Positions 8,850-51,779 of a stretch of DNA of 64,000 bases are shown here, in pieces. The DNA comes from a virus, in UHGV virus genome UHGV-1519562. The stretch is one strand, 5' to 3'. The first letter of the stretch is position 1. Every line of letters starts with the position of its first letter. The notes under the pieces are model-generated. The model searched no databases. It saw nothing but the letters and a program-made list of their open reading frames with translations, and had not been told where the DNA came from. The translations under genes and the position numbers were made by a program.

Positions 8850-8884
8850 ATATATACAAAGTTAAGAAAGGAATAAAAAAAATA

Positions 8885-24212: not shown

Positions 24213-24245
24213 AAAAATTTATATTATAATATATATAGAAATTAA
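24212..24245 (+). promoter_or_regulatory. promoter-family copy (AT-rich upstream, -10 TATAAT, leader ATATATAGAAATTAAGAAAGGA)
   Basis: consensus AAAAATTTATATTATAATATATATAGAAA after terminator. Confidence 0.45.
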
Positions 24246-24339
24246 GAAAGGAATTGATGTTTATGAAATTATGGGTGGATGATATTCGGCCTGCGCTGCT
24301 GGTTATATTTGGGCTAAATCTGTTGAACAAGCGAAAACT

Positions 24340-24597
24340 ATGATTTCTTTTGCTCAAAATGGTTTTTTAATTGGATTAACTGATGATATTTTTCTTGATT
24401 TAATATCTCTCGACCATGATGCTGGAGATTTTGCTTCTGATGGTGGTGATTATATTGAAATTTTAAATTGGTTAGAAAGGGTTCAAAATGCTTTTGCTTG
24501 GCCTCTTTCTTGTAAATTTCATCTTCATTCCCAAAATCCTGTGGGAGTTCAAAATATGAGGAGAATTATTCAACATAATCACTGGGAGGAGATTTAA
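24340..24597 (+). CDS. conserved small phage protein, apparently frameshifted (N-terminal MKLWVDDIRPA segment in another frame from ~24257)
   Basis: track ORF lacks the conserved N-terminus, which is readable upstream in a different frame. Confidence 0.4.
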   Translation: MISFAQNGFLIGLTDDIFLDLISLDHDAGDFASDGGDYIEILNWLERVQNAFAWPLSCKFHLHSQNPVGVQNMRRIIQHNHWEEI

Positions 24598-24598
24598 T

Positions 24599-25495
24599 AT
24601 GAATAATTATCAAAATTTATATAATATTATTAAAACTATTTATATCCAAAAGCAAGAAGAAAAATCTACCAATTATCATTCTTATATCGAAATTCAAACA
24701 AGAGTAATGGAGCATTACCAAGAAGCTTTAAAAATTTTTCCTAAAGAAAATATTCTTGGTATTTTTTATCAAGGCGCCGCGAATTATGGTCTTGATACTG
24801 TAAATTCTGATGTTGATACTAAATGTCTTATTATTCCTACTATTGAAGATTTGGCTTTTAATAAAAAACCAGTAAGTTATACTCATGTTTTAAATAATAA
24901 TGAACACATTGATTTTAAAGATGTGCGGCTTTATATGAATGAGTTCCGCAAACAGAATATTAATTTTTTAGAAATTTTATACACTGATTATTGTTATGTA
25001 AATCCAAAATATCAATCTTTTTGGAATAAATTAATTTCTAAAAGAGATGAAATTGCTCATTATGATGAATTTAGAGCTTTAAATAGTATGCTTGGTATAA
25101 TGCAAAATGAGATTAATCGCATGTTTAAACCAACAGAGAGTCGAAAAGAAGTTGTAGAAAAATTTGGCTATGACCCAAAATGTTTTAGTCATTTAAATAG
25201 ACTTAGATTATTTTATAGTTGTTACTTGAATGATTCTTATTCTATTTGTTTAAAGTGTTATGATAGTTTTTGGAGAGAAAGATTAATCTTTTATAAAAAT
25301 GGATATGAAGATTTAAGTTTTGTAAAAATTTTTGTTGAAGATCAGCAAGAATGGGTAAAAAACCAGTATGAACGATTAAGTAATGAAAGAAAAAATTATT
25401 CTATCAATATAGAAATTTCTAATTACATGGATGAAGTATTATTAAATATTATTGAAAATTATTTGTGTTCATATTTTCAACCTACTGCTTTTTAA
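24599..25495 (+). CDS. nucleotidyltransferase-fold protein (Pol beta superfamily)
   Basis: QGAANYGLDTVNSDVDT fits the G[GS]x9-13Dh[DE] signature; second acidic motif IDFKDVR. Confidence 0.5.
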   Translation: MNNYQNLYNIIKTIYIQKQEEKSTNYHSYIEIQTRVMEHYQEALKIFPKENILGIFYQGAANYGLDTVNSDVDTKCLIIPTIEDLAFNKKPVSYTHVLNNNEHIDFKDVRLYMNEFRKQNINFLEILYTDYCYVNPKYQSFWNKLISKRDEIAHYDEFRALNSMLGIMQNEINRMFKPTESRKEVVEKFGYDPKCFSHLNRLRLFYSCYLNDSYSICLKCYDSFWRERLIFYKNGYEDLSFVKIFVEDQQEWVKNQYERLSNERKNYSINIEISNYMDEVLLNIIENYLCSYFQPTAF

Positions 25496-25507
25496 GGAGG
25501 AATTCTA

Positions 25508-26254
25508 GTGAAACAGTATTTTATCACTGGGGATACGCACGGTAAAAATTATCAACGTATTTGTCAAATGATTGAACAATATTCTTGCTCTCCTAAAAAT
25601 TCTTCTCTTATTATTCTTGGAGACGCAGGATTTAATTTTTGGTTAGATAAAAAAGAGCAAAAGTGGAAGAAAAGAGTAAATGATTTAGGATATTCGATTT
25701 ATTGTGTGCGGGGAAACCATGAAGAGCATCCTAAAAATTTACCTAATATTCAAGAAATTTGGGATGCAGAAATTCAAGGTTGGATTTATATTCAACCAGA
25801 TTTTCCTAACCTTAAATATTTGATTGACGGAAATACTTACTACTTTAATAGTCATTCTGCTATTGTTCTTGGTGGTGCTTATTCGGTTGATAAACATTAT
25901 AGATTAATGCAGGCTACTTTGAATCGTACCGATGATTGGACTGGTTGGTTTCCTGATGAACAATTAACACAGCAAGAGATGTTAGATATTAACAATAAAG
26001 TGATTAATCATCATTATGATTTAGTTCTATCTCATACTTGTCCTTTTGATTGGCGTCCTACTGCTTTATTTCTTCCTGGAATTGATCAATCTACTATTGA
26101 TAATACTATGGAAATTTGGATGAATGATTTAAAAGATAAGTTTTCTTGGAATAATTGGTTCTGGGGACACTTTCACGCAAATACAGATTACTATGATGGT
26201 AGATATATGTTATTTGAAAATATTTATAATTTAGAGGATTTAATTAATGATTGA
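25508..26254 (+). CDS. calcineurin-like metallophosphoesterase
   Basis: motifs GDTHG, GDAGFN, RGNHE, GHFH; GTG start after AAGGAGG RBS. Confidence 0.7.
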   Translation: MKQYFITGDTHGKNYQRICQMIEQYSCSPKNSSLIILGDAGFNFWLDKKEQKWKKRVNDLGYSIYCVRGNHEEHPKNLPNIQEIWDAEIQGWIYIQPDFPNLKYLIDGNTYYFNSHSAIVLGGAYSVDKHYRLMQATLNRTDDWTGWFPDEQLTQQEMLDINNKVINHHYDLVLSHTCPFDWRPTALFLPGIDQSTIDNTMEIWMNDLKDKFSWNNWFWGHFHANTDYYDGRYMLFENIYNLEDLIND

Positions 26255-26576
26255 TGGCGTTACAGTTTTAAAACAATATGATTTTACTTTGGACGCAAAT
26301 TTAATTATTATTCTTAGTATTTTAACTGGTATATTGTTTTTCTTTTTAGTTAAAATGCTTTGGTTTGATATGAAACCTGAAGGAAATTTAATACCTCTTA
26401 TATGGGGAGTAACGATTGGTTTATTAGCTGCTTTTTATTTAAAATCTGATGATTCTTCTCCTTGTCGTTATGATGTTATTATAGATGATTCTGTTTCAGT
26501 TAATGAATTATATAAAGATTATGAAATATTAAAAGTAGAAGGAAAAATTTATACAATTACTTTAAGGGAGAAATAA
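26247..26576 (+). CDS. small membrane protein
   Basis: hydrophobic segments LIIILSILTGILFFFLV and GVTIGLLAAFYL. Confidence 0.5.
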   Translation: MIDGVTVLKQYDFTLDANLIIILSILTGILFFFLVKMLWFDMKPEGNLIPLIWGVTIGLLAAFYLKSDDSSPCRYDVIIDDSVSVNELYKDYEILKVEGKIYTITLREK

Positions 26577-26578
26577 TA

Positions 26579-27097
26579 ATGACTAATAAATATGAAGCAC
26601 GAATTTTCCCCAATGGACGTATCGCGTTTTATAAAAGCAAAGATTTAGAAGATGCCATCAAAGCTGATAAAGAATTGTTGATTGTATGTAATTGTCATAC
26701 TGGTGGAAGCACTTTAGCTATGGGCGCCCACAAAATGCCCGATCGGAATAATCCTGATGAAACTATCACATTTTTATACAACTCAAGCATCAGCCGTCAA
26801 GTATTTACAGGAGAAGAAATGAATCGTTTTTATAAGGTTATTTTTACTCCTGGCGAAAGGATTTTTGATAATAACTCTGACTATGCTACACGATATGACT
26901 ATGGCCACCATTGTTTCTATAATGGCAGCAAAAAAATGAAAGTAAATGAGGAAATGACTGCGCGTTATCTCAATAAAGAACAAGTAAAAGCAATGATTGG
27001 AATTGGTGTTTTTACTGAAAAGGCATTGGATTACTGTATTGAAGCAATAAGTAATAAAAATGCTATCGAAGATTCTGTAAACGAATGTTCTAGTTAA
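26579..27097 (+). CDS. hypothetical protein
   Basis: 172 aa ORF. Confidence 0.55.
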   Translation: MTNKYEARIFPNGRIAFYKSKDLEDAIKADKELLIVCNCHTGGSTLAMGAHKMPDRNNPDETITFLYNSSISRQVFTGEEMNRFYKVIFTPGERIFDNNSDYATRYDYGHHCFYNGSKKMKVNEEMTARYLNKEQVKAMIGIGVFTEKALDYCIEAISNKNAIEDSVNECSS

Positions 27098-27121
27098 AAA
27101 GAAATTTATTTTAAATTTAAG

Positions 27122-27160
27122 GACAAAACTTTTAAAAGTTTTGTCATTAATTTATTTTTT
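27122..27160 (+). terminator. terminator-like hairpin
   Basis: stem GACAAAACTTTT / AAAAGTTTTGTC, T-run slightly downstream. Confidence 0.5.
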
Positions 27161-27200
27161 TAAAAAAATATTATATAATATATATAGAAAGTTAAGGAAT
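27160..27200 (+). promoter_or_regulatory. promoter-family copy with conserved leader
   Basis: AAAAAAATATTATATAATATATATAGAAAGTTAAGGAA. Confidence 0.45.
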
Positions 27201-27229
27201 AAATAAATAAGAAAGAGGTTGAAATTTTT

Positions 27230-27499
27230 ATGATTTATAGAAAAAGCAAATATAGTAAAGATCAGACTGCAATTTGGCAAGGTGAAACCGCGGTTATTCT
27301 TGCCCAATCAGCAGAAGCTATGACAATAGATGAAATTAAAAAGAATAGTATTCAATTAACAGGTGTTTCTACTCAAAAAATGGCTAGGATTCTTGGGCAT
27401 TTAATTGAAATGGGTATGGTAACAAAAGCAAAAAGCAAAAGTGGTAAAATGGTCTATAAATCTTTAGCAGTTATGGAAGCACAAGGCTATGAAATTTAA
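27230..27499 (+). CDS. putative winged-helix DNA-binding protein
   Basis: MTIDEI...GVSTQKMARILGHLIEMGMV resembles an HTH; weak. Confidence 0.4.
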   Translation: MIYRKSKYSKDQTAIWQGETAVILAQSAEAMTIDEIKKNSIQLTGVSTQKMARILGHLIEMGMVTKAKSKSGKMVYKSLAVMEAQGYEI

Positions 27500-27518
27500 A
27501 TAAAGGAGTTTGATATTT

Positions 27519-28787
27519 ATGGCATACTATGGTTTAGTAACTAAAATTGAGAATGTAAGAAAAGACCCTAATTCTGATAGACTCTATTTAGCTGACTGTT
27601 TTAGAGAAGGAGTTATTGTAGGCCCTGATATAAAGGAAGGTGAGTTAGTTCTTTATCTTCCTACTGATGGAGCTATTGAGCGTTGGTTTGGTGATGAGTT
27701 TAAGCTTTTCCGCAAGAATTTAGATGGCACCGCACAAGGTGGTTATTTGGAAAATAATGCTCATATTAGAGCAATTAAGCTGAGAGGTAATGAATCTTCT
27801 GGTATTGTTATTTCTTATTCTGCTATTGTTGAGCATTTTGGTGAGCAAAATTGGAAAGACGGCGATCAAGTAACTGAAATTAATAATAAACTGTTTTGTT
27901 ATAAATATATTCCTAGACCTTCGGCTACTCCTCGCACTACTCCTAAGACTTCTTATAAAGGTCGTAAAGCAGCTGGAATTAAGTATCCTGATTTTGCTAT
28001 GCACATTGATACTGCTCAATTAGCTTACAATCTTGGAATCTTTAGACCTGGAGATAAAATTAATCTAACCCTTAAAATGCATGGAACTAGCCAGCGTAGT
28101 GCATATACTTGGGCAGAATATCCTATGTCTTGGTTTAGAAAACTATTTCATATGAAGCCTAAGAGAAAGTTACAGTATGTTTTAGGTACTCGTAGAACTG
28201 TTGTTACTACTGATGGGGCAGGTTATTATGGTAATGACAAATTTAGATTTAGTCATCATGAAGCTTTAAAACCTTATCTTGATGAAGGTATGGAGGTTTT
28301 TTATGAAGTAGTTGGTTGGTATGGAGCAAAAGAAAATGAAACTATTATGCCAATTGTAGATAATAGTAAAATTAATGACAAGAAATTTATGAAAAAGTTT
28401 GGTAAGTATACTACTTTTTCTTATGGTTGTACTCCTGGTCATTCTGCGATGTGGATTTATAGAATTACTTCTCACAATGGAGAGTATGAATATTCTCCAG
28501 AGGAAATTACTACTTGGTGTAATGAATATGGTTTTAATCGTGTTCCTATCATTGAGGATTTTGAATTTACTACTGTTGATGACTTGCTCGCTAAAATTGA
28601 CAAATATTTTGAAGATATTGTTGATCCAGTTGGTTTAACTCATGTTAAAGAAGGTGTAGTGGTTAGAATCGCTAATAGATGTACTTTTACTGCATTAAAA
28701 CAAAAAACCTGGGAGTTTAAAGTCCTTGAAGGTCTAGTTAAAGATACTGAAACCCAGCCCGATATGGAAGAAGCACAGGAGATTTAA
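27519..28787 (+). CDS. RNA ligase, Rnl2-like (nucleotidyltransferase motif I KxHGT)
   Basis: LTLKMHGTSQ matches the ligase motif I lysine-adenylation signature in its Rnl2-type form; ATG after AAGGAG RBS. Confidence 0.55.
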   Translation: MAYYGLVTKIENVRKDPNSDRLYLADCFREGVIVGPDIKEGELVLYLPTDGAIERWFGDEFKLFRKNLDGTAQGGYLENNAHIRAIKLRGNESSGIVISYSAIVEHFGEQNWKDGDQVTEINNKLFCYKYIPRPSATPRTTPKTSYKGRKAAGIKYPDFAMHIDTAQLAYNLGIFRPGDKINLTLKMHGTSQRSAYTWAEYPMSWFRKLFHMKPKRKLQYVLGTRRTVVTTDGAGYYGNDKFRFSHHEALKPYLDEGMEVFYEVVGWYGAKENETIMPIVDNSKINDKKFMKKFGKYTTFSYGCTPGHSAMWIYRITSHNGEYEYSPEEITTWCNEYGFNRVPIIEDFEFTTVDDLLAKIDKYFEDIVDPVGLTHVKEGVVVRIANRCTFTALKQKTWEFKVLEGLVKDTETQPDMEEAQEI

Positions 28788-28789
28788 AT

Positions 28790-29239
28790 ATGACTTTAGA
28801 AATTATGCACAATGACATGATGCAGGCTTTGAAGAATGGTGATACTCAAAAGAAGAATGTACTTTCCAATATGATTGGTGAAGTACAAAAAGCAGCAATT
28901 ACACCAAAAGGCAGAATTGAAATTACCGAAGAGCTTGTTAATAATACTTTAATCAAGTATCAAAAGATGATTCAAGAAATGATTGATACTTGTCCAGAAA
29001 ATCGCGAAGAGTTATTTATTCAATATAATCTTGATATGGCTGTTGTAAAGCAGTATGCACCACAACTTCTTACTGACAAAGAAGCAATTAAAACTCAAAT
29101 TGAAAAGATGCTTGCAGAAAATAAGCTCGATGCAATTAAGGCAAATAAAGGCAGAGCAATGAAACTTTTTGCTCCTGTTTTTAAAGGTAAAGCAGATATG
29201 AAAATTGTTAATCAAATTGTATCGGAGGTAATGACCTAA
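28790..29239 (+). CDS. GatB/YqeY-domain protein
   Basis: C-terminal GRAMKLFAPVFKGKADMKIVNQIVSEVM matches the YqeY signature. Confidence 0.65.
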   Translation: MTLEIMHNDMMQALKNGDTQKKNVLSNMIGEVQKAAITPKGRIEITEELVNNTLIKYQKMIQEMIDTCPENREELFIQYNLDMAVVKQYAPQLLTDKEAIKTQIEKMLAENKLDAIKANKGRAMKLFAPVFKGKADMKIVNQIVSEVMT

Positions 29240-29416
29240 TATGTTTTATTTAATAATGACGATTATTTGGGGTATCTTAATGTGTGTTAATGGAGTTTTG
29301 CTATGCGAAACAATTTTACATAATAGATGTCAAGAAAAGAAAATGCGTATTTTCTGGTTCCTCTTTTGCGTATTTTGGTTTATTTTTGAAATCTTGCGGC
29401 TCGGAGGCTTTATTCT

Positions 29417-29635
29417 TTGAAAATTGTAATTGATAAAAAAGATTTTATGGAATATATTCGTGCTATGGTAGATAAGGATTTTGACAATTTTATGTTTGCA
29501 AATCCTTACGCGACAGAAGAAGATTATATTAATTTATATTATTCTTTTGATACAATTCATAATTTAGATGATATTTGTGAAGAAGAATATTGTAGAAGAA
29601 TTATTAATGGTGAAATAGAAGAAATTGAAGATTGA
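29417..29635 (+). CDS. hypothetical protein
   Basis: 72 aa ORF. Confidence 0.45.
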   Translation: MKIVIDKKDFMEYIRAMVDKDFDNFMFANPYATEEDYINLYYSFDTIHNLDDICEEEYCRRIINGEIEEIED

Positions 29636-29640
29636 AAGAA

Positions 29641-29687
29641 TTAAGGGCAAAGATTAAGATCTTTTGCCCTTAATTTATTTTTTTAAA
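29641..29687 (+). terminator. rho-independent terminator
   Basis: stem TTAAGGGCAAAGAT / ATCTTTTGCCCTTAA plus T-run. Confidence 0.65.
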
Positions 29688-29725
29688 AATTTATATTATA
29701 ATATATATAGAAAGTTAAGAAAGGA
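29685..29725 (+). promoter_or_regulatory. promoter-family copy with conserved leader
   Basis: AAAAATTTATATTATAATATATATAGAAAGTTAAGAAAGGA. Confidence 0.45.
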
Positions 29726-29735
29726 ATTGATATTT

Positions 29736-29903
29736 ATGAATAAGGGTAAAGTTTATTGTTTTACTGACCTTCATGGCGATTCAAATTTGTTTAAGCAAAT
29801 TAAAAATTTCATTCAAGCAGAAGATAAAGTATTCGTGTTGGGTGATGTAATTGACAGAGGGACAGAAGGTTGTCAAAGCCTTTCTCTACACGAAAATATT
29901 TAA
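29736..29903 (+). pseudogene. truncated metallophosphoesterase remnant (N-terminal ~55 aa only)
   Basis: DLHGD...GDVIDRG motifs then premature stop; no downstream GNHE motif in any frame. Confidence 0.45.
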
Positions 29904-30073
29904 CAGACAATAATATACGTATTATTTTTACAAATTATGTAGAAATGTTAAAATATAAAATTTGGAAAAAGACAGAAATTAAAAAAATAAATACAGAAAA
30001 AGAAAGAAAAGAACTTAAAGAATATTTTGAAATTGTAAAAAAACAAATTGAGGAGTTTGATAAAAATGTCTAA
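29870..30073 (+). CDS. small hypothetical ORF (may be non-coding remnant)
   Basis: 67 aa Lys-rich ORF overlapping the truncated gene. Confidence 0.25.
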   Translation: MSKPFSTRKYLTDNNIRIIFTNYVEMLKYKIWKKTEIKKINTEKERKELKEYFEIVKKQIEEFDKNV

Positions 30074-30341
30074 AGACCCTAGAAAATATGAAATGCACGA
30101 TTTTTATTGTATGAATTGCGGAAAGAAGTCAATGTCAATTCCTCGATTAAGAGGACGTTTTAGAGAAGTTGGGCATAAGAAAGTTATGTATTGCCCTCAT
30201 TGTAAAGAAACTGTTAATATGGTAGAATGTAGAAACGATGAAGAAGCATATAATTTTAAACTAGATTTTGAAGAAGGTCTTTTTAAAGAAGAAGCACAAA
30301 ATAGTATTTCTTATGTAAAGGAGTTTGGTATTTATGATTAA
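30066..30341 (+). CDS. zinc-ribbon protein
   Basis: CMNCG...CPHCK pair. Confidence 0.5.
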   Translation: MSKDPRKYEMHDFYCMNCGKKSMSIPRLRGRFREVGHKKVMYCPHCKETVNMVECRNDEEAYNFKLDFEEGLFKEEAQNSISYVKEFGIYD

Positions 30342-30837
30342 TTTGCATATTCTTTGTGGTATTCCTGCTTCCGGCAAATCTACTTGGGCAAAACAACAGA
30401 ATGGTAAAATTATTTCAAGAGATGAAATCCGTAAGAATTATGTAGGCGAAAATCCTGGAAAAAATTATTTTAGTAAAGAAAAACAAGTATATAAAGAAAT
30501 GATTACAAATATTAAAATTGCAATCAAAGAAAATATAAAAAATATTTATATAGATGCAACTCATATTGATGTTTCTTCAAGAGCTAAACTTTTAAACAAT
30601 TTTTTTAATCTAAAAGATAAGAATAATATTAATCTTACTTTTGATTATTTTCCTATTCTTTTAGATGTTGCTTTAAAAAGAAATTCTGAAAGAGAAGGTT
30701 TTGCTAAAGTCCCAGAAGAAGCAATAAAAAATTTTTATTTTAAATCTTCTATTCCTTCTAAGGATGAGATGAATAAATATCTTGATTGGGGTTTTCATAA
30801 TGTGAATACTATTTTGCATTATACTGAGGAGGTGTAA
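30334..30837 (+). CDS. P-loop polynucleotide-kinase-like protein (Pnk-type AAA kinase)
   Basis: Walker A GIPASGKST followed by RDEIR, as in T4 Pnkp-type kinase domains. Confidence 0.55.
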   Translation: MINLHILCGIPASGKSTWAKQQNGKIISRDEIRKNYVGENPGKNYFSKEKQVYKEMITNIKIAIKENIKNIYIDATHIDVSSRAKLLNNFFNLKDKNNINLTFDYFPILLDVALKRNSEREGFAKVPEEAIKNFYFKSSIPSKDEMNKYLDWGFHNVNTILHYTEEV

Positions 30838-30839
30838 TA

Positions 30840-31385
30840 ATGGTTTGGTTTACCAGTGATCTTCATCTAGGCCATAATAAGCCCTTTCTTTATGAACCAA
30901 GAGGGTTTAAGAATATTCAAGAACATGATAACGCAATTATTGAAAATTGGAATAAAATTATTCGTCCTAATGATAAAATTTATGTGCTTGGCGATTTAAT
31001 GCTAAATGATAATGAAGCAGGAATTGAAAAAATTAAACAGTTAAAAGGACAAATTTATGTAGTTAGAGGAAACCATGATAGTGAAGTTCGTGTAAATTTA
31101 TATAATAATTGTAACAATATTATTAAAGTAACTGAAGGTCAATTTCTAAGATATGGTAAATATCATTTTTATTTAAGCCATTATCCTACACTTTGTAGTA
31201 ATTTTGATAATGAGAAACCTCTTAAAGCAAGAATGATTAGTATGTGCGGACACTCTCATAGTCAGGACGCTTTTGCGGATTGGGATAAAGGTCTTATTTA
31301 TCATGTAGAATTGGATGCTCATAATAATTTTCCTGTTTCTATTGATTCAATTATTAAGGATATTAAAAACAAAATTAAACAATAA
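30840..31385 (+). CDS. calcineurin-like metallophosphoesterase (candidate phosphatase partner of the kinase)
   Basis: SDLHLGH, GDLMLND, RGNHD, GHSH motifs. Confidence 0.65.
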   Translation: MVWFTSDLHLGHNKPFLYEPRGFKNIQEHDNAIIENWNKIIRPNDKIYVLGDLMLNDNEAGIEKIKQLKGQIYVVRGNHDSEVRVNLYNNCNNIIKVTEGQFLRYGKYHFYLSHYPTLCSNFDNEKPLKARMISMCGHSHSQDAFADWDKGLIYHVELDAHNNFPVSIDSIIKDIKNKIKQ

Positions 31386-31553: not shown

Positions 31554-31991
31554 ATGAGTCTAAGAAAAACAATTAATCTTTTACCCGTAGAATTTAATTA
31601 CACAAATAATTCAATTGAGGCAATAATTTATTATGAACGAAAATACTATACTGGGATTGCTACTTGTCATTCTGATGATATGGACTTTTTCTCAACCAAA
31701 GTAGGTCAAACAATAGCTCACAAAAGAGCAATTATTAATGCTTTAAAAGATATTAAAGAAAAAACTAATATCGAATATAACGCTGTAAAAAGATTTTATA
31801 ACGATATTTTAAGAGAAAATAAAAAATGTGAGTATATCATTGTCATTAAAGAAATAGTAAGGTTAAAACGGCAAATTAATAAATATTTGGGTTATATTAA
31901 AACAGAAGAAAAAGAATTAAATACATATTTAAAAGCTCAAAGTAAAGTAATTACTTCTCTAAAAAGACAAAGAAAGGCCATAAATAATTAA
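31554..31991 (+). CDS. hypothetical protein
   Basis: 145 aa ORF behind promoter and RBS TAGGAG. Confidence 0.55.
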   Translation: MSLRKTINLLPVEFNYTNNSIEAIIYYERKYYTGIATCHSDDMDFFSTKVGQTIAHKRAIINALKDIKEKTNIEYNAVKRFYNDILRENKKCEYIIVIKEIVRLKRQINKYLGYIKTEEKELNTYLKAQSKVITSLKRQRKAINN

Positions 31992-32044: not shown

Positions 32045-33316
32045 TTGAACAATAGGAGAGTGGAAATTATTATTAAATTCTACGATACTTGTAGTCTTTT
32101 ATTAGCCGGAGAATCAGCTTTTGAAGATAATGAAAAATTTATCATTTCTTCTATTACTTTAAAAGAGTTAGAAAGAATTAAAACTGCGGCAAATAAAGAT
32201 TCTGATATAAAATATTCCGCAAGACTTTTGCTTCATTTATTTGAAAAATATCCAAATAATTATTCTGTTAAAATTCATCAAACAAATTATGAATACATTT
32301 TAGATAAAATGAATTTTGATATTAATGATGATGCTAGAATTTTGTCTGATGCTTGGAATGAGTTTGAAACAAATAAATGTTTAGAATTTATAACTAATGA
32401 TTTAAGTTTAAAACATATTGCTTTATGTTTGTTTCCCAAAGAAAATGTTTCTTCTATTGAAGAAGATTTAGATACTTATAGTGGAATTGCAGAAATTACT
32501 GCTAATGAAGAATTAATTTCTGAATTTTATGAAAATCCTAACCATAATCATTTTAATCTTAAAAAAGGAGAATATCTACTTTTAAAAAATCCTGATAATT
32601 TTGATGAACTTATAGATGTGCGGGTTTGGACAGGAGAAACTTATCGTTATTTAAAATTTCCTACTTTTGATTCTACCTGGTTTGGAAAAGTACAACCATA
32701 TCAAGGAGATATATATCAAAAATGTGCTTTTGATAGTTTAGCTAATAATAAAATTACTTTGCTACAAGGCCCAGCAGGAGTAGGAAAATCTTACATTTCT
32801 CTAGCTTTTTTAATGTATATGTTAGAAAAAAATAGAATAGATAAAATTATAATCTTTTGTAATACAGTGGCAACTATTAATTCCGCTAAATTAGGGTTTT
32901 ACCCAGGTACAAAAGACGATAAATTACTTGACTCGCAAATTGGAAATATGCTTTCCGCCAAATTGGGTGGTAAAGAAGGTGTTCTTCGTATGATGGAAGA
33001 AGATAAATTAGTTTTATTGCCTTTTAGCGATATTAGAGGTTATGATACTAGCGGAATGAACGCAGGTATTTATATAACAGAAGCACAAAATTTAGACAGA
33101 ACTTTAATTAAATTAGCTCTTCAACGTATTGGTGAAGATTGTATTTGTATTATTGATGGTGATGCTAAAACGCAAGTTGACTCATTAGCTTATTCTGGTA
33201 ATAATAATGGTATGAGAAGAATGTCTAAAATTTTTAGAGGTTCTGATATTTATGGAGAAGTAACTTTAAATAATATTCATAGATCTAAAATAGCAGAACT
33301 TGCAGAATTAATTTAA
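32045..33316 (+). CDS. PhoH-like ATPase with N-terminal PIN-like domain
   Basis: Walker A GPAGVGKS and KLGFYPGT matching the PhoH signature; N-terminal YDTCSLL acidic motif. Confidence 0.65.
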   Translation: MNNRRVEIIIKFYDTCSLLLAGESAFEDNEKFIISSITLKELERIKTAANKDSDIKYSARLLLHLFEKYPNNYSVKIHQTNYEYILDKMNFDINDDARILSDAWNEFETNKCLEFITNDLSLKHIALCLFPKENVSSIEEDLDTYSGIAEITANEELISEFYENPNHNHFNLKKGEYLLLKNPDNFDELIDVRVWTGETYRYLKFPTFDSTWFGKVQPYQGDIYQKCAFDSLANNKITLLQGPAGVGKSYISLAFLMYMLEKNRIDKIIIFCNTVATINSAKLGFYPGTKDDKLLDSQIGNMLSAKLGGKEGVLRMMEEDKLVLLPFSDIRGYDTSGMNAGIYITEAQNLDRTLIKLALQRIGEDCICIIDGDAKTQVDSLAYSGNNNGMRRMSKIFRGSDIYGEVTLNNIHRSKIAELAELI

Positions 33317-33360: not shown

Positions 33361-33387
33361 TTTAAAACAAAAGAAAGGAGAATGTAT

Positions 33388-34176
33388 ATGAATACACAGC
33401 CTGTATCTTATTTACAAACAGACGCAAGATGGAAAAATATTAGTTATTCAGCAAAAGGTGAATCAACTACAATTGGCGCTTCTGGCTGCGGCCCCACCGC
33501 AATGTCTATGGTTTTAGCTACATGGGCAGATAAAAAAGTTACTCCAAAAACTGAATGTGCTTGGGCTTTAGCGCATGGTTATAAAGCCCCTCACCAAGGA
33601 ACTTATTATGGATATTTTAAGCCTGCTGCTGCACGATACGGTTTAACAGCCTATATGTTGAATGGTGCAAATATTTATGGTAATAGTTCTAGTAAATATC
33701 ATAATTTAGCAAAAGCTGAAATTGATAAAGGTAATTTAGTTATAGCTTGTATGGGCAAAGGATTATGGACAAGTAGTGGTCATTTCATTTTAGTGTGGAA
33801 TATTCAAGGAAACACTATTTATATTAATGACCCTAACAGCACAAAAACCGTACGCACTAGAGGTAATTATAGTCTTTTCAAACAACAGGTAAAATATTAC
33901 TTTATAATTGAAAAACCTAAAACAAATAATAATAAACCTACAATTAAACAAGAGGAGGATGAAGATATGACTCAAGAAAAATTTAATGAAATGATGAATA
34001 ATTATTTAGTTCAATTAGCTAAGCAAAATGCTGATTGGGGCAAAGATGAATTAAATTGGGCAGTTTCTATGGGACTAATTAAAGGTGACGAAACTGGCAA
34101 ATTAATGCCTAATAAGTTTTTAACCAGACTAGAAGGCGTCACTATAATGAAGAGATTGTATGATAAGCTTCGTTAA
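33388..34176 (+). CDS. endolysin candidate: papain-fold (C39-like) cysteine peptidase with C-terminal SLH domain
   Basis: ASGCGPTAMSMV Cys motif and GHFILVWN His motif; C-terminal NWAVSMGLIKGDETGKLMPNKFLTRLEGVTIMKRL (SLH-like). Confidence 0.55.
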   Translation: MNTQPVSYLQTDARWKNISYSAKGESTTIGASGCGPTAMSMVLATWADKKVTPKTECAWALAHGYKAPHQGTYYGYFKPAAARYGLTAYMLNGANIYGNSSSKYHNLAKAEIDKGNLVIACMGKGLWTSSGHFILVWNIQGNTIYINDPNSTKTVRTRGNYSLFKQQVKYYFIIEKPKTNNNKPTIKQEEDEDMTQEKFNEMMNNYLVQLAKQNADWGKDELNWAVSMGLIKGDETGKLMPNKFLTRLEGVTIMKRLYDKLR

Positions 34177-34600: not shown

Positions 34601-34658
34601 GATTTATTAATAATATTATACTACTTTTATTTAAGAAAATCAAAGAAGGGAGAATTAA

Positions 34659-35153
34659 ATCATAGGTACTATTATTTACACTGATGGGTCAACTTTAAAA
34701 AATGGTAGTAAAGATGCTTCTGGAGGCTATGGAGTAGTTGTTTACAAGTATCTTAAAGACCCCAAAAATTTACATTTAGTAGATGCTTTTGCTCATCAAA
34801 CTATTGGAACTACAAATAACAGAGAAGAAATGAAAGCTATTCTTTGGGCTTTATATAATTATGGGGTTTCCGCGGATTCTTTTACTTATCCTATTGTTTA
34901 TACAGATTCTTTATATTGTGTAAATACTTTCAATGATTGGATGTATAGGTGGAAAAATAATAACTGGCGAAAAGCAGATAAATCAACTCCTGAAAATTTG
35001 GATTTAATAAAATTTTATGATATAATATATAATAAATGGAATAGAAAGATTGATTTAAAAAAAATTAAAGGTCATGCTGGTATTGAAGGCAATGAACTTG
35101 CTGATGATTTAGCTACTGGTAGAGTGACTGTTAAGGAGGTATTGGGTGAATAA
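34659..35153 (+). CDS. rnhA: ribonuclease H (RNase HI-like); no canonical start codon found in frame
   Basis: IYTDGS...GGYG, REEMKAI, YTDSLY, KGHAG...NELADDLA catalytic motifs; frame opens right after TAA with ATC/ATA codons; track ORF 34830..35153 is only the C-terminal part. Confidence 0.6.
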   Translation: MIGTIIYTDGSTLKNGSKDASGGYGVVVYKYLKDPKNLHLVDAFAHQTIGTTNNREEMKAILWALYNYGVSADSFTYPIVYTDSLYCVNTFNDWMYRWKNNNWRKADKSTPENLDLIKFYDIIYNKWNRKIDLKKIKGHAGIEGNELADDLATGRVTVKEVLGE

Positions 35154-49312: not shown

Positions 49313-49549
49313 ATGGATGATATTTATAAGTTGCAGGAAGTTTTTGAAGAAAAAGATATGAAAATTAAAGAATATGTTTTTGACAGTTTGTGTTTAAGAT
49401 ATAAATACGCAAGAATGATGTTAGCTGTTTATGAAGTTAAAAATGGCCAGGAATTTGAAACACGAATGAATTTAGCGAGAAGAGATTGTTTACGTTTCTT
49501 TGATATTCTTAGAGAAAACCTTTTGGAGGATAAAAATGACTCTAACTGA
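49313..49549 (+). CDS. hypothetical protein
   Basis: 78 aa ORF behind GC-rich conserved element. Confidence 0.5.
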   Translation: MDDIYKLQEVFEEKDMKIKEYVFDSLCLRYKYARMMLAVYEVKNGQEFETRMNLARRDCLRFFDILRENLLEDKNDSN

Positions 49550-51779
49550 TAAACAATACCAAGGATTGCAGATTGCAGTACAAAGATATAGATCTAAAGA
49601 ACCATATACTGTAGTTTCGGGATACGCTGGAACAGGAAAAGCTCAACCCATAGATACTCTTGTTCCCACTCCTACTGGATGGAGAAAATTGGGTGAACTT
49701 AAAATTGGCGATTATGTTTATGATAGAACAGGACAACCCACAAAAATTTTAGGTGTTTTTCCACAGGGCAAAAAACAAGTTTATACTATTTGTTTAAAAG
49801 ATGGTAGAAAAAGTAAATGTGCAGGAGATCACCTATGGACAGTTTTAAATAAGAAAAATCAAGAGCAAACATTAACTACAGAAGAACTTTTAAAAAAAGG
49901 GCTAACTAATAGTGCGGGATTTAAATACGCAGTGCCAAATAATTCTCCTGTTGAGTATCCTCAAATTAATTATTCTATTGATCCATATGTTATTGGAGCT
50001 TTTTTGGGAGACGGATGTTGTAAACAAAGGCAATTAACTCTTTCTTCTGAAAATGAAGAGATACCAAATATAGTAAAAAAATTAATTGGAGCAAAAGAAG
50101 TATGCAGAAATTCTTCACAAAATTATAATTGGACTTTTACTTTTGAAGAGCCTGTAACCAATATTGATAATCCAGCTTATTCTATTTTAAAATTTCAAAC
50201 GAATACTTTTTTTGTAGATTACCAAAAAGAACTTTGTTGCGCAGCTCAAGAAAAAAGTATCCCTGATATTTATAAAAGAGGTTCTATCCAACAACGATTA
50301 GATTTACTTCAAGGGTTATTTGATACAGATGGTTCAATCATTGATAGTGAAAAACGATTTAATGTTCGTTTTACTTCAACCAGTTATCATTTAATTTTAG
50401 ATGTACAAGAAGTTCTTTGGTCTTTAGGTTATAGTTCAACTATTATAAAGGATAAAAGAAGTGAAAAATATACAACTGGTATTTGTTATAATTTAAATGT
50501 TAATATTCCTAATGAAGAAAAATTTAAACTTTTTAGATTACAAAGAAAAAAAGAAATTGCTTATGAAGCTCAAAATTATATTAAACATAAAAATTATACA
50601 AAAAATTCTATCGTAGATATTTTTAAAGAATCACATGAAACAGAAATGGTTTGCATTTATGTTGACAACTCAGAACATTTGTATTTAACAAATGATTATA
50701 TTGTTACTCATAATACAACTTTAGTTAATTTTATTATTGATGCTCTAAATTTAGACAAAGAAAATGATGTAGCTTTTATTGCTTATACAGGTAAAGCCGC
50801 TAAAGTTTTAAAATCAAAAGGTAATAAAAATGCAATGACTGCTCATAAGTTACTTTATAAAGCTGTAAAAAATCCTAATGGAACATATAGATTTTATCCT
50901 AAATTGACTATTGATGATTATAAACTTATTGTGGTGGATGAAGTTTCCATGTTACCTAAAAAAATGTGGGAACTTCTTCTCTCCCATCATATTCCTGTTC
51001 TAGCAACTGGCGACCCCGGCCAATTACCTGCTTTAACAGAAGGAACAGATATTCTAAATAATCCACATGTTTTTCTTGATGAGATTATGCGACAAGCGCA
51101 AGAAAGTGAAATTATTAGATTAAGCATGGATATTAGAAATGGAAAACTTATTAAACCTTTTAAAGGAAAAGAGGTAAATGTAGTTTGTGCTTCTAATTTA
51201 AATCAAGGTATGTTAGCTTGGGCAGATCAGATTATTTGTGCTAAAAATGACACTAGATATTACTTAAATGATGTTTGTCGTAAATTATTCTGGGGTGTTG
51301 ATTCTGGCGCTCTTCCTGTTGTTGGAGATAAAATTATTTGTCTGCATAATGATTGGAAAAAGTTAAATTCTTTAGAAGATCCACTCATTAATGGTGCAAT
51401 TGGAACTATTAAAAATTATAAAGTTTTATATGATAAAAATTTAAAAGATAATATTCTTAAATTAGATTTTATGCCAGAAGAATACGATGATGAAAATTTT
51501 TTAGGGTTATTTTCTATGAATAATGTAGATTATAATCAATTAGTAAATCATACCCCAAGTGTTACTCAAGATAATTATTATCTTTTACCTAAGAATTATA
51601 AGCTTCAAAGTTTTGATTATGGTTATGCAATTACTTGCTGGAAAGCACAAGGCAGCGAATATCAAAAGGTATTGGGTATTGAAGAAAACTTTCCTTTTAA
51701 ACAAGAGGAGCATAAAAGATATTTATATACTTTAGTGACTCGTGCATCTGAAAAACTTACTCTTGTTTTAAAAAATTAA
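49536..51779 (+). CDS. Dda/RecD-like SF1 helicase interrupted by an intein in the Walker A motif
   Basis: GYAGTGK | intein | TTLVNF restores GTGKTT; downstream VVDEVSM and GDPGQLP. Confidence 0.75.
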   Translation: MTLTDKQYQGLQIAVQRYRSKEPYTVVSGYAGTGKAQPIDTLVPTPTGWRKLGELKIGDYVYDRTGQPTKILGVFPQGKKQVYTICLKDGRKSKCAGDHLWTVLNKKNQEQTLTTEELLKKGLTNSAGFKYAVPNNSPVEYPQINYSIDPYVIGAFLGDGCCKQRQLTLSSENEEIPNIVKKLIGAKEVCRNSSQNYNWTFTFEEPVTNIDNPAYSILKFQTNTFFVDYQKELCCAAQEKSIPDIYKRGSIQQRLDLLQGLFDTDGSIIDSEKRFNVRFTSTSYHLILDVQEVLWSLGYSSTIIKDKRSEKYTTGICYNLNVNIPNEEKFKLFRLQRKKEIAYEAQNYIKHKNYTKNSIVDIFKESHETEMVCIYVDNSEHLYLTNDYIVTHNTTLVNFIIDALNLDKENDVAFIAYTGKAAKVLKSKGNKNAMTAHKLLYKAVKNPNGTYRFYPKLTIDDYKLIVVDEVSMLPKKMWELLLSHHIPVLATGDPGQLPALTEGTDILNNPHVFLDEIMRQAQESEIIRLSMDIRNGKLIKPFKGKEVNVVCASNLNQGMLAWADQIICAKNDTRYYLNDVCRKLFWGVDSGALPVVGDKIICLHNDWKKLNSLEDPLINGAIGTIKNYKVLYDKNLKDNILKLDFMPEEYDDENFLGLFSMNNVDYNQLVNHTPSVTQDNYYLLPKNYKLQSFDYGYAITCWKAQGSEYQKVLGIEENFPFKQEEHKRYLYTLVTRASEKLTLVLKN
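49641..50714 (+). mobile_element. intein (358 aa) with LAGLIDADG homing-endonuclease domain
   Basis: starts with Ala after GTGK, ends IVTHN followed by Thr; LAGLIDADG-type motifs IGAFLGDGC and LLQGLFDTDGSI. Confidence 0.7.

Follow-up and report, generated by a model that had tools for sequence, protein, structure and literature searches.

The subject of this analysis is a 64,000-nucleotide stretch of the virus genome UHGV-1519562, a large gut phage that is uncultivated (hereafter the window), in which genes for the healing and sealing of RNA ends lie together between 24.2 and 31.4 kb, every one of them on the plus strand. Together they probably form a phage RNA-repair island, aimed most likely at tRNA, of a kind already predicted by comparative genomics. 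A dense gene set within about 7 kb had been described in a first-pass annotation made from the letters alone, and each gene named there was recovered in its place by open reading frames (ORFs) and Pfam. The family assignments also fit its description of the set as the heal-and-seal complement of tRNA repair, but the ligase is of Rnl5 architecture, one phosphoesterase gene (MPE3) is deleted and the cREC gene is frameshifted.

A gene layout for RNA repair in phages and bacteria was reportedly set out by Burroughs and Aravind in 2016. With the layout defined from that work and from the survey of Iyer et al. 2021 (PMC7824862), the window combines a ligase, a nucleotidyltransferase, an end-modifying kinase and phosphoesterases, and a scaffold protein in one conserved neighbourhood:

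21535-23058, + strand: TROVE-like DUF2828+DUF7788 gene (Pfam 1.9e-30 and 9.9e-39; phrog_850 "RNA-binding protein", 5.7e-111)
24263-24597, + strand: cREC gene, frameshifted (Pfam cREC_REC, 5.7e-10, on the C-terminal part)
24599-25495, + strand: putative divergent RlaP-family Pol-beta nucleotidyltransferase (Pfam RlaP, 0.0054; phrog_388, 5.1e-16)
25508-26254, + strand: metallophosphoesterase MPE1 (Pfam Metallophos, 4.8e-12; phrog_1649)
27230-27499, + strand: 89-aa winged-helix-like protein, directly upstream of the ligase (weak TrmB match, 0.0018)
27510-28787, + strand: ATP-dependent RNA ligase, Rnl5 architecture (Pfam RNA_ligase, 9.5e-6; PHROGs RNA ligase, 2.4e-47)
28790-29239, + strand: YqeY/GatB-tail domain protein (Pfam YqeY, 1.4e-15; phrog_1460)
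29737-29903, + strand: MPE3 remnant, 55 codons (comparison with the intact gene in the sibling contig L011)
30325-30837, + strand: P-loop kinase, Pnk type (AAA_33/KTI12)
30840-31385, + strand: metallophosphoesterase MPE2 (aq_1665/GpdQ-like)
32045-33316, + strand: PIN-PhoH protein (Pfam PhoH, 3.1e-25; PIN_4, 3e-5)

The set is kept together in about 30 related phage loci, across which the ligase is 34-97% identical. In 30 related loci from IMG/VR viral contigs, co-occurrence within 10 kb of the ligase was counted for RlaP (29 loci), Pnk (25), MPE3 (25), MPE1 (23, plus one weak match), TROVE (22) and cREC (21); the clustering of the repair genes is more than chance. The order shared by the gut-metagenome and IMG/VR loci is TROVE, cREC, RlaP, MPE1, winged-helix protein, ligase, MPE3, kinase, MPE2 and PIN-PhoH. 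TROVE orthologues that are 51-97% identical occupy the same place in 22 related loci. Besides the 97% sibling, 18 related loci have the winged-helix protein at 45-71% identity, in each case immediately ahead of the ligase.

The RNA ligase

The ligase had been annotated as Rnl2-like on its KMHGT motif; the enzyme, the motif and a catalytic domain of Rnl2/Rnl5 type are all present, but the architecture is that of Rnl5 and not of Rnl2. Rnl2 enzymes have an N-terminal catalytic domain followed by an Rnl2-specific C-terminal helical domain, with no N-terminal OB domain. Rnl5 enzymes are defined by an N-terminal OB domain and a C-terminal adenylyltransferase domain, and by Mn-dependent sealing of 3'-OH/5'-PO4 nicks with RNA on the 3'-OH side. 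In the window ligase an N-terminal domain of about 130 residues, which matches the OB folds of Trbp111, CsaA and PheRS-B2, precedes the catalytic domain (catalytic lysine at position 189), and this rules out an Rnl2 identity. When 48 diverse homologues were aligned, K189 (in the KMHGT motif and invariant across the family), R228, E266, Y305, E381, K397 and K399 were invariant, and motifs I, Ia, III, IIIa, IV and V of the adenylyltransferase domain are all present. With every motif kept, the protein is in all appearance a genuine covalent-lysine nucleotidyltransferase.

Searches of solved structures with the single sequence or a narrow profile gave no match, and only a diverse profile and a structure model revealed the relationship to Rnl5. 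The profile of the 48 homologues matched NgrRnl of Naegleria at 7e-11 (T4 Rnl2 at 0.1), aligning residues 5-192 with NgrRnl 8-179 so that the lysine motifs coincide (KlHGTS and KLDGSS). Foldseek with the structure model found NgrRnl at 4.7e-15 over the full length; full-length matches were to NgrRnl only, T4 Rnl2 aligning to the catalytic domain alone. The Pfam RNA_ligase score falls just below threshold, and the NCBIfam model RNA_lig_DRB0094 (TIGR02306, the DraRnl model) matches the N-terminal half (2.2e-9) with 36.7 bits against a cut-off of 151, so that the protein is not a DraRnl equivalog. Its clade seems to be a distinct subfamily, larger than that of the DraRnl equivalogs: the family (phrog_968) comprises about 1,900 clusters at 50% identity and more than 6,000 at 90%, with members in mycobacteriophage and in Microbacterium, Gordonia, Prevotella and Bacillus phages, and thousands of close homologues lie on metagenomic contigs of about 105-250 kb.

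Five homologues (P0133, P0138, P0142, P0162 and P0166) are longer, about 790-810 aa, with an insertion of about 360 residues exactly after the catalytic lysine motif; residues 1-193 and 190-422 of the query map to their two ends, and the insertion looks like an intein.

A separate ATP-dependent DNA ligase is encoded in the replication module of the phage, so DNA joining does not call for the Rnl5-type enzyme. This dedicated DNA ligase and the RNA-specific families of the partners argue for a role on RNA.

Kinase and metallophosphoesterases

The P-loop Pnk-like kinase predicted from the letters lies at 30325-30837. Its best solved relatives are PSTK (1.5e-9), Pnkp1 (3.5e-4) and T4 Pnk (0.018), with a bacter_Pnkp match at 1.1e-4, and 17 orthologues keep the P-loop GIPASGKST (G-x4-GKST), S31-R-D33-x-x-R36, the Walker-B D77 and R119-N-x-x-R123. 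The P-loop, the catalytic Asp with its Arg (D-x-x-R), the Walker-B Asp and the R-x-x-x-R lid are the functional residues of T4 Pnk. The profile check for a deoxynucleoside monophosphate kinase instead placed the protein, as far as sequence can tell, in the Pnk/PSTK/KTI12 polynucleotide-kinase clade. The top match, PSTK, phosphorylates Ser-tRNA, and the substrate of the kinase is therefore not readable from homology alone.

Two intact calcineurin-like phosphoesterases and a truncated third had been predicted, and this is what was found: MPE1 and MPE2 are intact and MPE3 is the remnant of a deletion. Two bases separate the kinase stop codon from the start of MPE2. In each of the 21 loci where MPE2 was seen it comes right behind the kinase, its start lying within about 100 nt of the kinase end. 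The nearest relatives of MPE2 are Aquifex aq_1665 and the phosphodiesterase GpdQ, and we regard it as a candidate 2',3'-cyclic phosphodiesterase/3'-phosphatase. MPE1 keeps the full motif set (GDTHG, GD, GNHE, H and GHFH) and is a candidate 3'-end healing enzyme; sequence searches found no solved relative for it. The possibility that the phosphoesterases would be assigned by profile to protein phosphatases is answered for MPE2, which is closest to aq_1665/GpdQ and not to that group; MPE1 has no characterised relative.

The MPE3 ORF spans 29664-29903, probably with its real start at the ATG at 29737, and keeps only the DLHG and GDVIDRG motifs. Comparison with L011 (IMG/VR, 137.7 kb, 97% identical to the window) shows that a deletion of about 770 bp removed most of the gene. 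The intact copy there (12217-12930, 237 aa) is lambda-phosphatase/PrpE/ApaH-like and has the motifs DLHG, GDVIDRG, GNHE and HGH. The signature of the bacterial-Pnkp-type phosphatase (DxHG, GDxxDRG, GNHE, GHxH) is found only in the MPE3 type, of which the window has no intact copy. A frameshift with decay of the GNHE motif had been considered for MPE3 on a weak collinear tblastn match (E 16-21); the plain deletion against the 97% sibling rejects it and makes the downstream similarity a chance one.

Nucleotidyltransferase and cREC

The Pol-beta-fold nucleotidyltransferase of the first-pass annotation lies at 24599-25495 and can be placed in the RlaP family, of which it appears to be a divergent member. 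It scores 16.9 bits against a cut-off of 23 for Pfam RlaP (PF10127; E 0.0054); the same model is matched by 27 of 31 close homologues (E<=0.01, best 6.4e-7), and 8 of 120 homologues have a precomputed PF10127 match. Of the Pol-beta catalytic signature (G-[GS], D-x-D and a third acidic residue), G59, D71, D73, D105 and D108 are invariant. At position 60 at least 90% of the family have Ser and the window protein has Ala, so that G-A stands in place of G-S here and in the nearest strains. The gene lies less than 3 kb from the ligase, the association seen in all but one of the 30 loci. RlaP enzymes add 1-2 nucleoside monophosphates to RNA 3'-OH ends and restore function to over-damaged tRNA (PMC12776372); by family membership, the window enzyme is predicted to restore 1-2 nucleotides at the 3' ends of RNA.

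The stretch from 24257, included in the region first annotated and left unnamed there, is a cREC gene (PF20274, 40.2 bits against a cut-off of 27), which directly precedes the RlaP gene and stands just upstream of it in the relatives examined. Its reading frame is broken by a 1-base deletion relative to L011, between 24295 and 24296 (CCTGCG-CTGCTGG), which cuts off the MKLWVDD start, with the acidic pair, from the rest; the remaining ATG ORF (24340-24597) lacks this N-terminal segment. The lesion could also be an assembly error rather than a true frameshift. Intact cREC genes (111-114 aa) are present in L008, L009 and L011, so that two near-identical strains besides the sibling keep the gene whole.

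Accessory proteins

The GatB/YqeY-domain protein was found as annotated (28790-29239); of 34 related loci, 11 have YqeY in the interval from ligase to kinase. The protein is possibly a tRNA-binding accessory, and a literature search for YqeY in RNA repair returned nothing relevant. The TROVE-like gene directly follows the second tRNA cluster and is a member of the same conserved set; its product is predicted to be a scaffold for damaged RNA. In the published layout the TROVE or Band-7 scaffold has a cognate non-coding RNA (Y RNA or tRNA-like) at its side; a permissive Rfam scan of 19.5-35.5 kb gave ordinary tRNAs only, with no Y-RNA or tRNA-like partner for the TROVE-like gene. An RNase H and a PIN-PhoH protein had also been announced slightly downstream, and they lie at 34830-35153 and 32045-33316, respectively. 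The PIN-PhoH protein is predicted to be an RNase with an RNA helicase/ATPase; it is a neighbour conserved downstream in relatives, and its role in the set is uncertain.

Operon structure

Hairpin terminators at 24179, 27122, about 29640 and 31389 are each followed by a copy of a promoter-like repeat. The repeat consists of an optional TTGA box, a T(G/A)nTATAAT box and then ATATATAGAAAGTTAAGAAAGGA running into the ribosome-binding site. It has 17 copies in the window (e.g., 2895, 8821, 10722, 19800, 24202, 27151, 29674, 31495 and 41864), which stand before the tRNA clusters and before each repair operon, the repair-operon copies being without the TTGA box. Terminators and repeat copies divide the repair set into three short operons, the remaining parts of which are as follows:

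24179-24249, + strand: terminator hairpin, then promoter-like repeat; opens the first repair operon
26247-27097, + strand: two ORFs (109 aa and 172 aa) at the end of the first operon
27122-27145: terminator of the first operon
27151-27198, + strand: promoter-like repeat; opens the second operon
29241-29635: two small ORFs
29640-29721, + strand: terminator hairpin and promoter-like repeat; opens the third operon
30048-30341, + strand: 97-aa zinc-ribbon protein, overlapping the kinase start (phrog_1257; CxxC...CxxC in the sequence)

The 109-aa and 172-aa ORFs have no Pfam or PHROG match; the longer one occurs in the sibling only, and the shorter one also in four other loci (L030-L033), as does the zinc-ribbon protein, which is likewise present in the sibling.

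Variation among relatives and decay in the window

Many relatives add to the set a vault-protein (MVP) homologue, nicotinamidase, a Prs-like protein, NAPRTase, NAD synthase, Thg1 and Band-7; none of the vault-protein, NAD-salvage, Thg1 or Band-7 genes is in the window. The homologue of the eukaryotic major vault protein (about 810 aa, with the MVP shoulder domain) is encoded just downstream of the TROVE-like gene (L001 3161-5596, L007 1485-3926 and others), Band-7 comes after MPE2, and the nicotinamidase/Prs/NAPRTase/NAD-synthase set lies inside the repair island.

The sibling L011 has both cREC and MPE3 intact and encodes, upstream of the ligase operon (8877-9707), a 276-aa DEDD (RNase T-like) exonuclease that is absent from the window (27097-27230). 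Judged by this comparison, the window appears to hold a reduced, partly decayed version of the island.

Proposed function

From the computed gene content, families, catalytic residues, operon layout and conservation we infer the substrates, the order of the steps, the roles of the phosphoesterases and a use in counter-defence. The scheme is the published heal-and-seal one (PMC7824862, PMC12776372). A host ribonuclease (an anticodon nuclease or some other RNase of an immune or toxin system) would cut RNA and leave 2',3'-cyclic-phosphate and 5'-OH ends. A phosphoesterase would open the cyclic phosphate and remove the 3' phosphate (MPE2 and/or MPE1 here, in intact relatives also cREC and MPE3), and the Pnk-type kinase would phosphorylate the 5'-OH. 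If a nucleotide had been excised, the RlaP-type enzyme could add it back at the 3' end, and in relatives a Thg1-like enzyme could rebuild 5' ends. The Rnl5-type ligase would then seal the break via a lysyl-AMP at K189, its tRNA-binding-type OB domain probably holding the substrate, and the TROVE-like protein, perhaps with YqeY, may bind or present the damaged RNA. In parallel, replacement by the phage's own tRNAs would be a second route. Counter-defence against tRNA nucleases, as the first-pass annotation had suggested, is the best, though inferred, reading of the set.

Conserved synteny with cREC, Thg1, TROVE and Band-7 in relatives supports RNA repair. Several observations weigh against it. 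None of the ORFs scanned is a Hen1, RtcB, 2H phosphoesterase or Tpt1. The characterised Rnl5 enzymes seal duplex nicks and have no established physiological substrate, and the one knockout phenotype, that of DraRnl, relates to how cells recover from ionising radiation and reassemble the genome (PMC5397189). Enzyme activities in the repair clade are predicted from homology. MPE1 is without a characterised relative, the MPE2 family occurs in hundreds of phages (e.g., phage K) with no kinase or ligase nearby, and the one phosphoesterase of the lambda-phosphatase type, as in bacterial Pnkp, is the deleted MPE3. The nucleotidyltransferase stays below the Pfam cut-off and has Ala for the usual Ser of the G-S motif. 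As cREC and MPE3 are both broken, part of the healing step is missing or redundant in the window.

Alternative explanations

An action on DNA or on RNA-DNA junctions in replication or repair, in which the ligase would seal nicks with a ribonucleotide 3'-OH and the kinase and phosphoesterases would clean DNA ends, is in our judgement unlikely; RNase H and the replication genes just downstream would then share the same business, an extension we hold to be no more probable. DraRnl, the founding member of Rnl5, indeed seals duplex nicks with an RNA 3'-OH strand, and when it is deleted the genome is put together again more slowly after irradiation (PMC5397189). RNase H, gyrase B/A, DNA ligase, DnaB, RecJ and Pol III alpha border the cluster, and the exonuclease that L011 has upstream of the ligase (with the 89-aa winged-helix gene between them) echoes the DraRnl-DR_B0095 operon, in which DraRnl sits with a DEDDh-like protein (PMC5397189). 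The conserved partners, however, are RNA-specific or RNA-associated (RlaP, cREC, TROVE, YqeY, Thg1 in relatives, and the tRNA clusters next to the set), the phage encodes a DNA ligase besides, and the repair operons, with terminators and promoters of their own, are separate from the replication genes.

Similarly improbable is that the phosphoesterases and cREC serve anti-signalling, destroying cyclic-nucleotide or ADP-ribose-derived immune messengers, with a loose tie to the ligase and kinase. cREC has been proposed to process cyclic ADP-ribose or 2',3'-cyclic nucleotides and is linked to NAD/ADP-ribose systems (PMC7824862). The NAD-salvage genes (nicotinamidase, Prs-like protein, NAPRTase and NAD synthase) that relatives interleave with the repair genes, the resemblance of MPE2 to GpdQ, a promiscuous diesterase, and the frequency of the MPE2 family in phages without repair genes would fit such a role. 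The tight coupling of MPE2 to the kinase and the place of cREC directly before the RlaP gene speak for membership in the repair set instead, and anti-signalling leaves the ligase, kinase, RlaP, TROVE and Thg1 unexplained.

A third alternative, that the main job of the set is the maturation of phage tRNAs by rejoining the exons of tRNAs that carry ribozyme-less endonuclease insertions, we rate slightly lower than these two. It starts from the tRNAs of the window:

9442-10003, + strand: tRNA-Ile(UAU), split after nt 36 by an insertion of about 486 nt (ARAGORN, introns allowed)
10234-12942, + strand: first tRNA cluster, 9 tRNAs (ARAGORN, Rfam)
20167-21479, + strand: second tRNA cluster, 7 tRNAs, directly upstream of the TROVE-like gene (ARAGORN, Rfam)

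ARAGORN counts 16 tRNAs, or 17 with the intron option, and Rfam 15; the number of about 18 given in the first-pass annotation is not reached by any tool. The split tRNA is uninterrupted in L011, where its anticodon loop reads CTTATAA, which identifies it as tRNA-Ile(UAU) and not a suppressor and places the insertion between nt 36 and 37. The insertion is nearly all one ORF for a PD-(D/E)XK homing endonuclease (PF11645, 1.8e-30), only about 40 nt being non-coding, and Rfam detected no group I intron in it even at E 5. Homologous endonucleases occupy the same position in tRNA-Ile(UAU), tRNA-Ile(GAU) and tRNA-Thr(UGU) of other phage contigs (L067-L071), and in some cases two or three tRNAs side by side carry them; one search for the endonuclease in viral contigs gave no match. 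The introns end in A or C rather than G. In every insertion a strand made of nt 33-36 and the first 7 bases of the intron pairs with one made of the intron's last 10 bases and A37, in an 11-bp helix that contains both splice sites; the intron ends with a codon complementary to the anticodon, with which the helix covaries. In six insertion sequences 10 of 16 pairs change on both sides, and 96.9% of cells are paired (about 40-46% in slid controls), so the helix looks like a selected RNA structure.

These endonuclease-bearing insertions might be true introns, the nuclease cutting the helix and a phage Rnl5-type ligase rejoining the exons, but the idea is a doubtful one; it is just as doubtful that the kinase and a phosphoesterase would join in the removal of the introns by proteins, should the ends need healing. 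Heal-and-seal enzymes do splice tRNA in fungi and plants (PMC6379707). The first-pass annotation had suggested that the kit processes the split tRNA, and the distribution of the genes goes the other way: the window, which bears the intron, has damaged healing genes (cREC and MPE3 lost), and the intron-less sibling has the full kit. No such insertion was found within 10 kb in roughly 50 ligase loci, no candidate splicing endonuclease was identified, and self-splicing of the insertion is possible. A link between the ligase and the split tRNA is thus conceivable and unsupported. If it were true, this would be a protein-dependent pathway of tRNA splicing, the first one among bacteria and phages, and the tRNA exons would be a physiological substrate for an Rnl5 ligase.

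That unrelated accessory genes lie together by chance in a variable region is very improbable: the region is plastic, with indels even between 97%-identical genomes and with extra genes that vary among relatives, but the core order (RlaP, MPE1, ligase, kinase, MPE2, TROVE) is kept at only 34-71% protein identity, and phages and bacteria that are unrelated show this combination again (PMC7824862, PMC12776372).

Other features of the window

At about 29% G+C the window is rich in A and T, and its genes lie with few exceptions on the plus strand. The remaining features near the island are:

23113-24174, + strand: subtilase with SLH domain
31554-31991: 145-aa ORF
34830-35153: RNase H ORF

For RNase H the open frame (34650-35153) runs about 60 codons 5' of the first ATG (..IIGTIIYTDGS..) and covers the first catalytic Asp and Glu; it has no ATG, GTG or TTG there, so the start is probably an ATA, ATC or ATT after a GGGAG ribosome-binding site. 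Between the tRNA clusters (17836-19714) lie a radical-SAM enzyme (414 aa) and a 218-aa ORF, which might modify RNA or nucleotides. One odd tRNA of the first cluster (12158-12230) is read by ARAGORN with a four-base anticodon (tgaa) in an 8-nt loop, and Rfam gives it an ordinary tRNA score (51 bits); it may suppress frameshifts, or the loop may have been called wrongly.

The first tRNA cluster also contains a gene for a GIY-YIG endonuclease (11476-11952). The phoH gene, uninterrupted in the window, is split in L011 by an insertion of about 1.3 kb (16151-17454; window position about 32890), which carries a LAGLIDADG ORF and ends in G and is therefore probably a group I intron. The GIY-YIG gene, the tRNA insertion and the phoH intron of the sibling indicate a high load of homing elements. 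An SF1 helicase (AAA_30/UvrD_C, 49500-51779) has a LAGLIDADG domain inserted at residues of about 267-328, probably an intein.

SLH domains occur on two proteins (the subtilase and a C39-like peptidase at 33382-34176), and an anaerobic NrdD is encoded at 56260-58389; together with the low G+C content they suggest as host an anaerobic Firmicute with an S-layer. A Megablast search of about 50,000 phage genomes with the 7-kb region gave no match, and the phage seems to be without a close cultured relative. PADLOC found no component matching known defence-system models.

Comparison with known systems and significance

Phage T4 has its kinase fused to a phosphatase domain of acid-phosphatase/HAD type and uses Rnl1 as tRNA ligase. 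The window resembles T4 Pnkp and Rnl1, which counter PrrC, in that a phage with tRNAs encodes a 5' kinase, a 3' phosphoesterase and an ATP-dependent ligase; it differs in a kinase that stands alone, binuclear metallophosphoesterases and a ligase of Rnl5 architecture. T4 also has an RlaP-family gene, NrdC.11 (PMC12776372). The bacterial Pnkp/Hen1 system (Clostridium thermocellum type; Pnkp1-Rnl-Hen1) likewise joins a metallophosphoesterase and an adenylyltransferase to a kinase from the same clade, but there the three activities are fused and work with Hen1, whereas the window has separate genes, no Hen1 was found and MPE3 is deleted. With the Rnl5 enzymes DraRnl (Deinococcus) and NgrRnl (Naegleria) the phage ligase shares the order of an N-terminal OB and a C-terminal adenylyltransferase domain, NgrRnl being the best structural and profile match, but it is about 85 residues longer, only 12-14% identical and the member of a large clade of its own.

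The closest cultured relatives of the ligase (40-44% identity, full length) are in Tsamsa-like Bacillus siphophages (vB_BcoS-136, PBC2 and Kirov), where the kinase directly follows the ligase and a subtilisin/subtilase gene lies upstream, as in the window. Their kinase, however, is fused to a C-terminal domain unrelated to MPE2, and RlaP, cREC, TROVE and metallophosphoesterases are not annotated near the ligase. A kinase-MPE2 fusion, considered for the "polynucleotide kinase" of vB_BcoS-136, was rejected, only the kinase half matching.

Large-phage RNA-repair sets share with the island the ligase, RlaP, kinase, phosphoesterases, cREC, TROVE, Thg1 and many tRNAs (PMC7824862). In that survey the phage 3'-phosphatases are typically HAD and rarely calcineurin-like, whereas the clade of the window has up to three calcineurin-like ones, and YqeY is not mentioned (PMC7824862); the genomes of the clade, about 105-150 kb, are also below the jumbo-phage range. 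The general idea is not new and the published picture is unchanged, the island being of a known kind that is mostly untried experimentally.

Phage RNA repair beyond T4 is almost entirely prediction, and a clade abundant in gut metagenomes would be a system in which to test it, with nearly all the predicted repair parts in one island (an Rnl5-type ligase, RlaP, cREC, three metallophosphoesterases, TROVE and YqeY). If a host is found, the 97%-identical pair with and without cREC, MPE3 and the exonuclease would be a natural knockout series. For the Rnl5 ligases, the function of which has been described as uncharted (PMC5397189), the island offers a physiological hypothesis.

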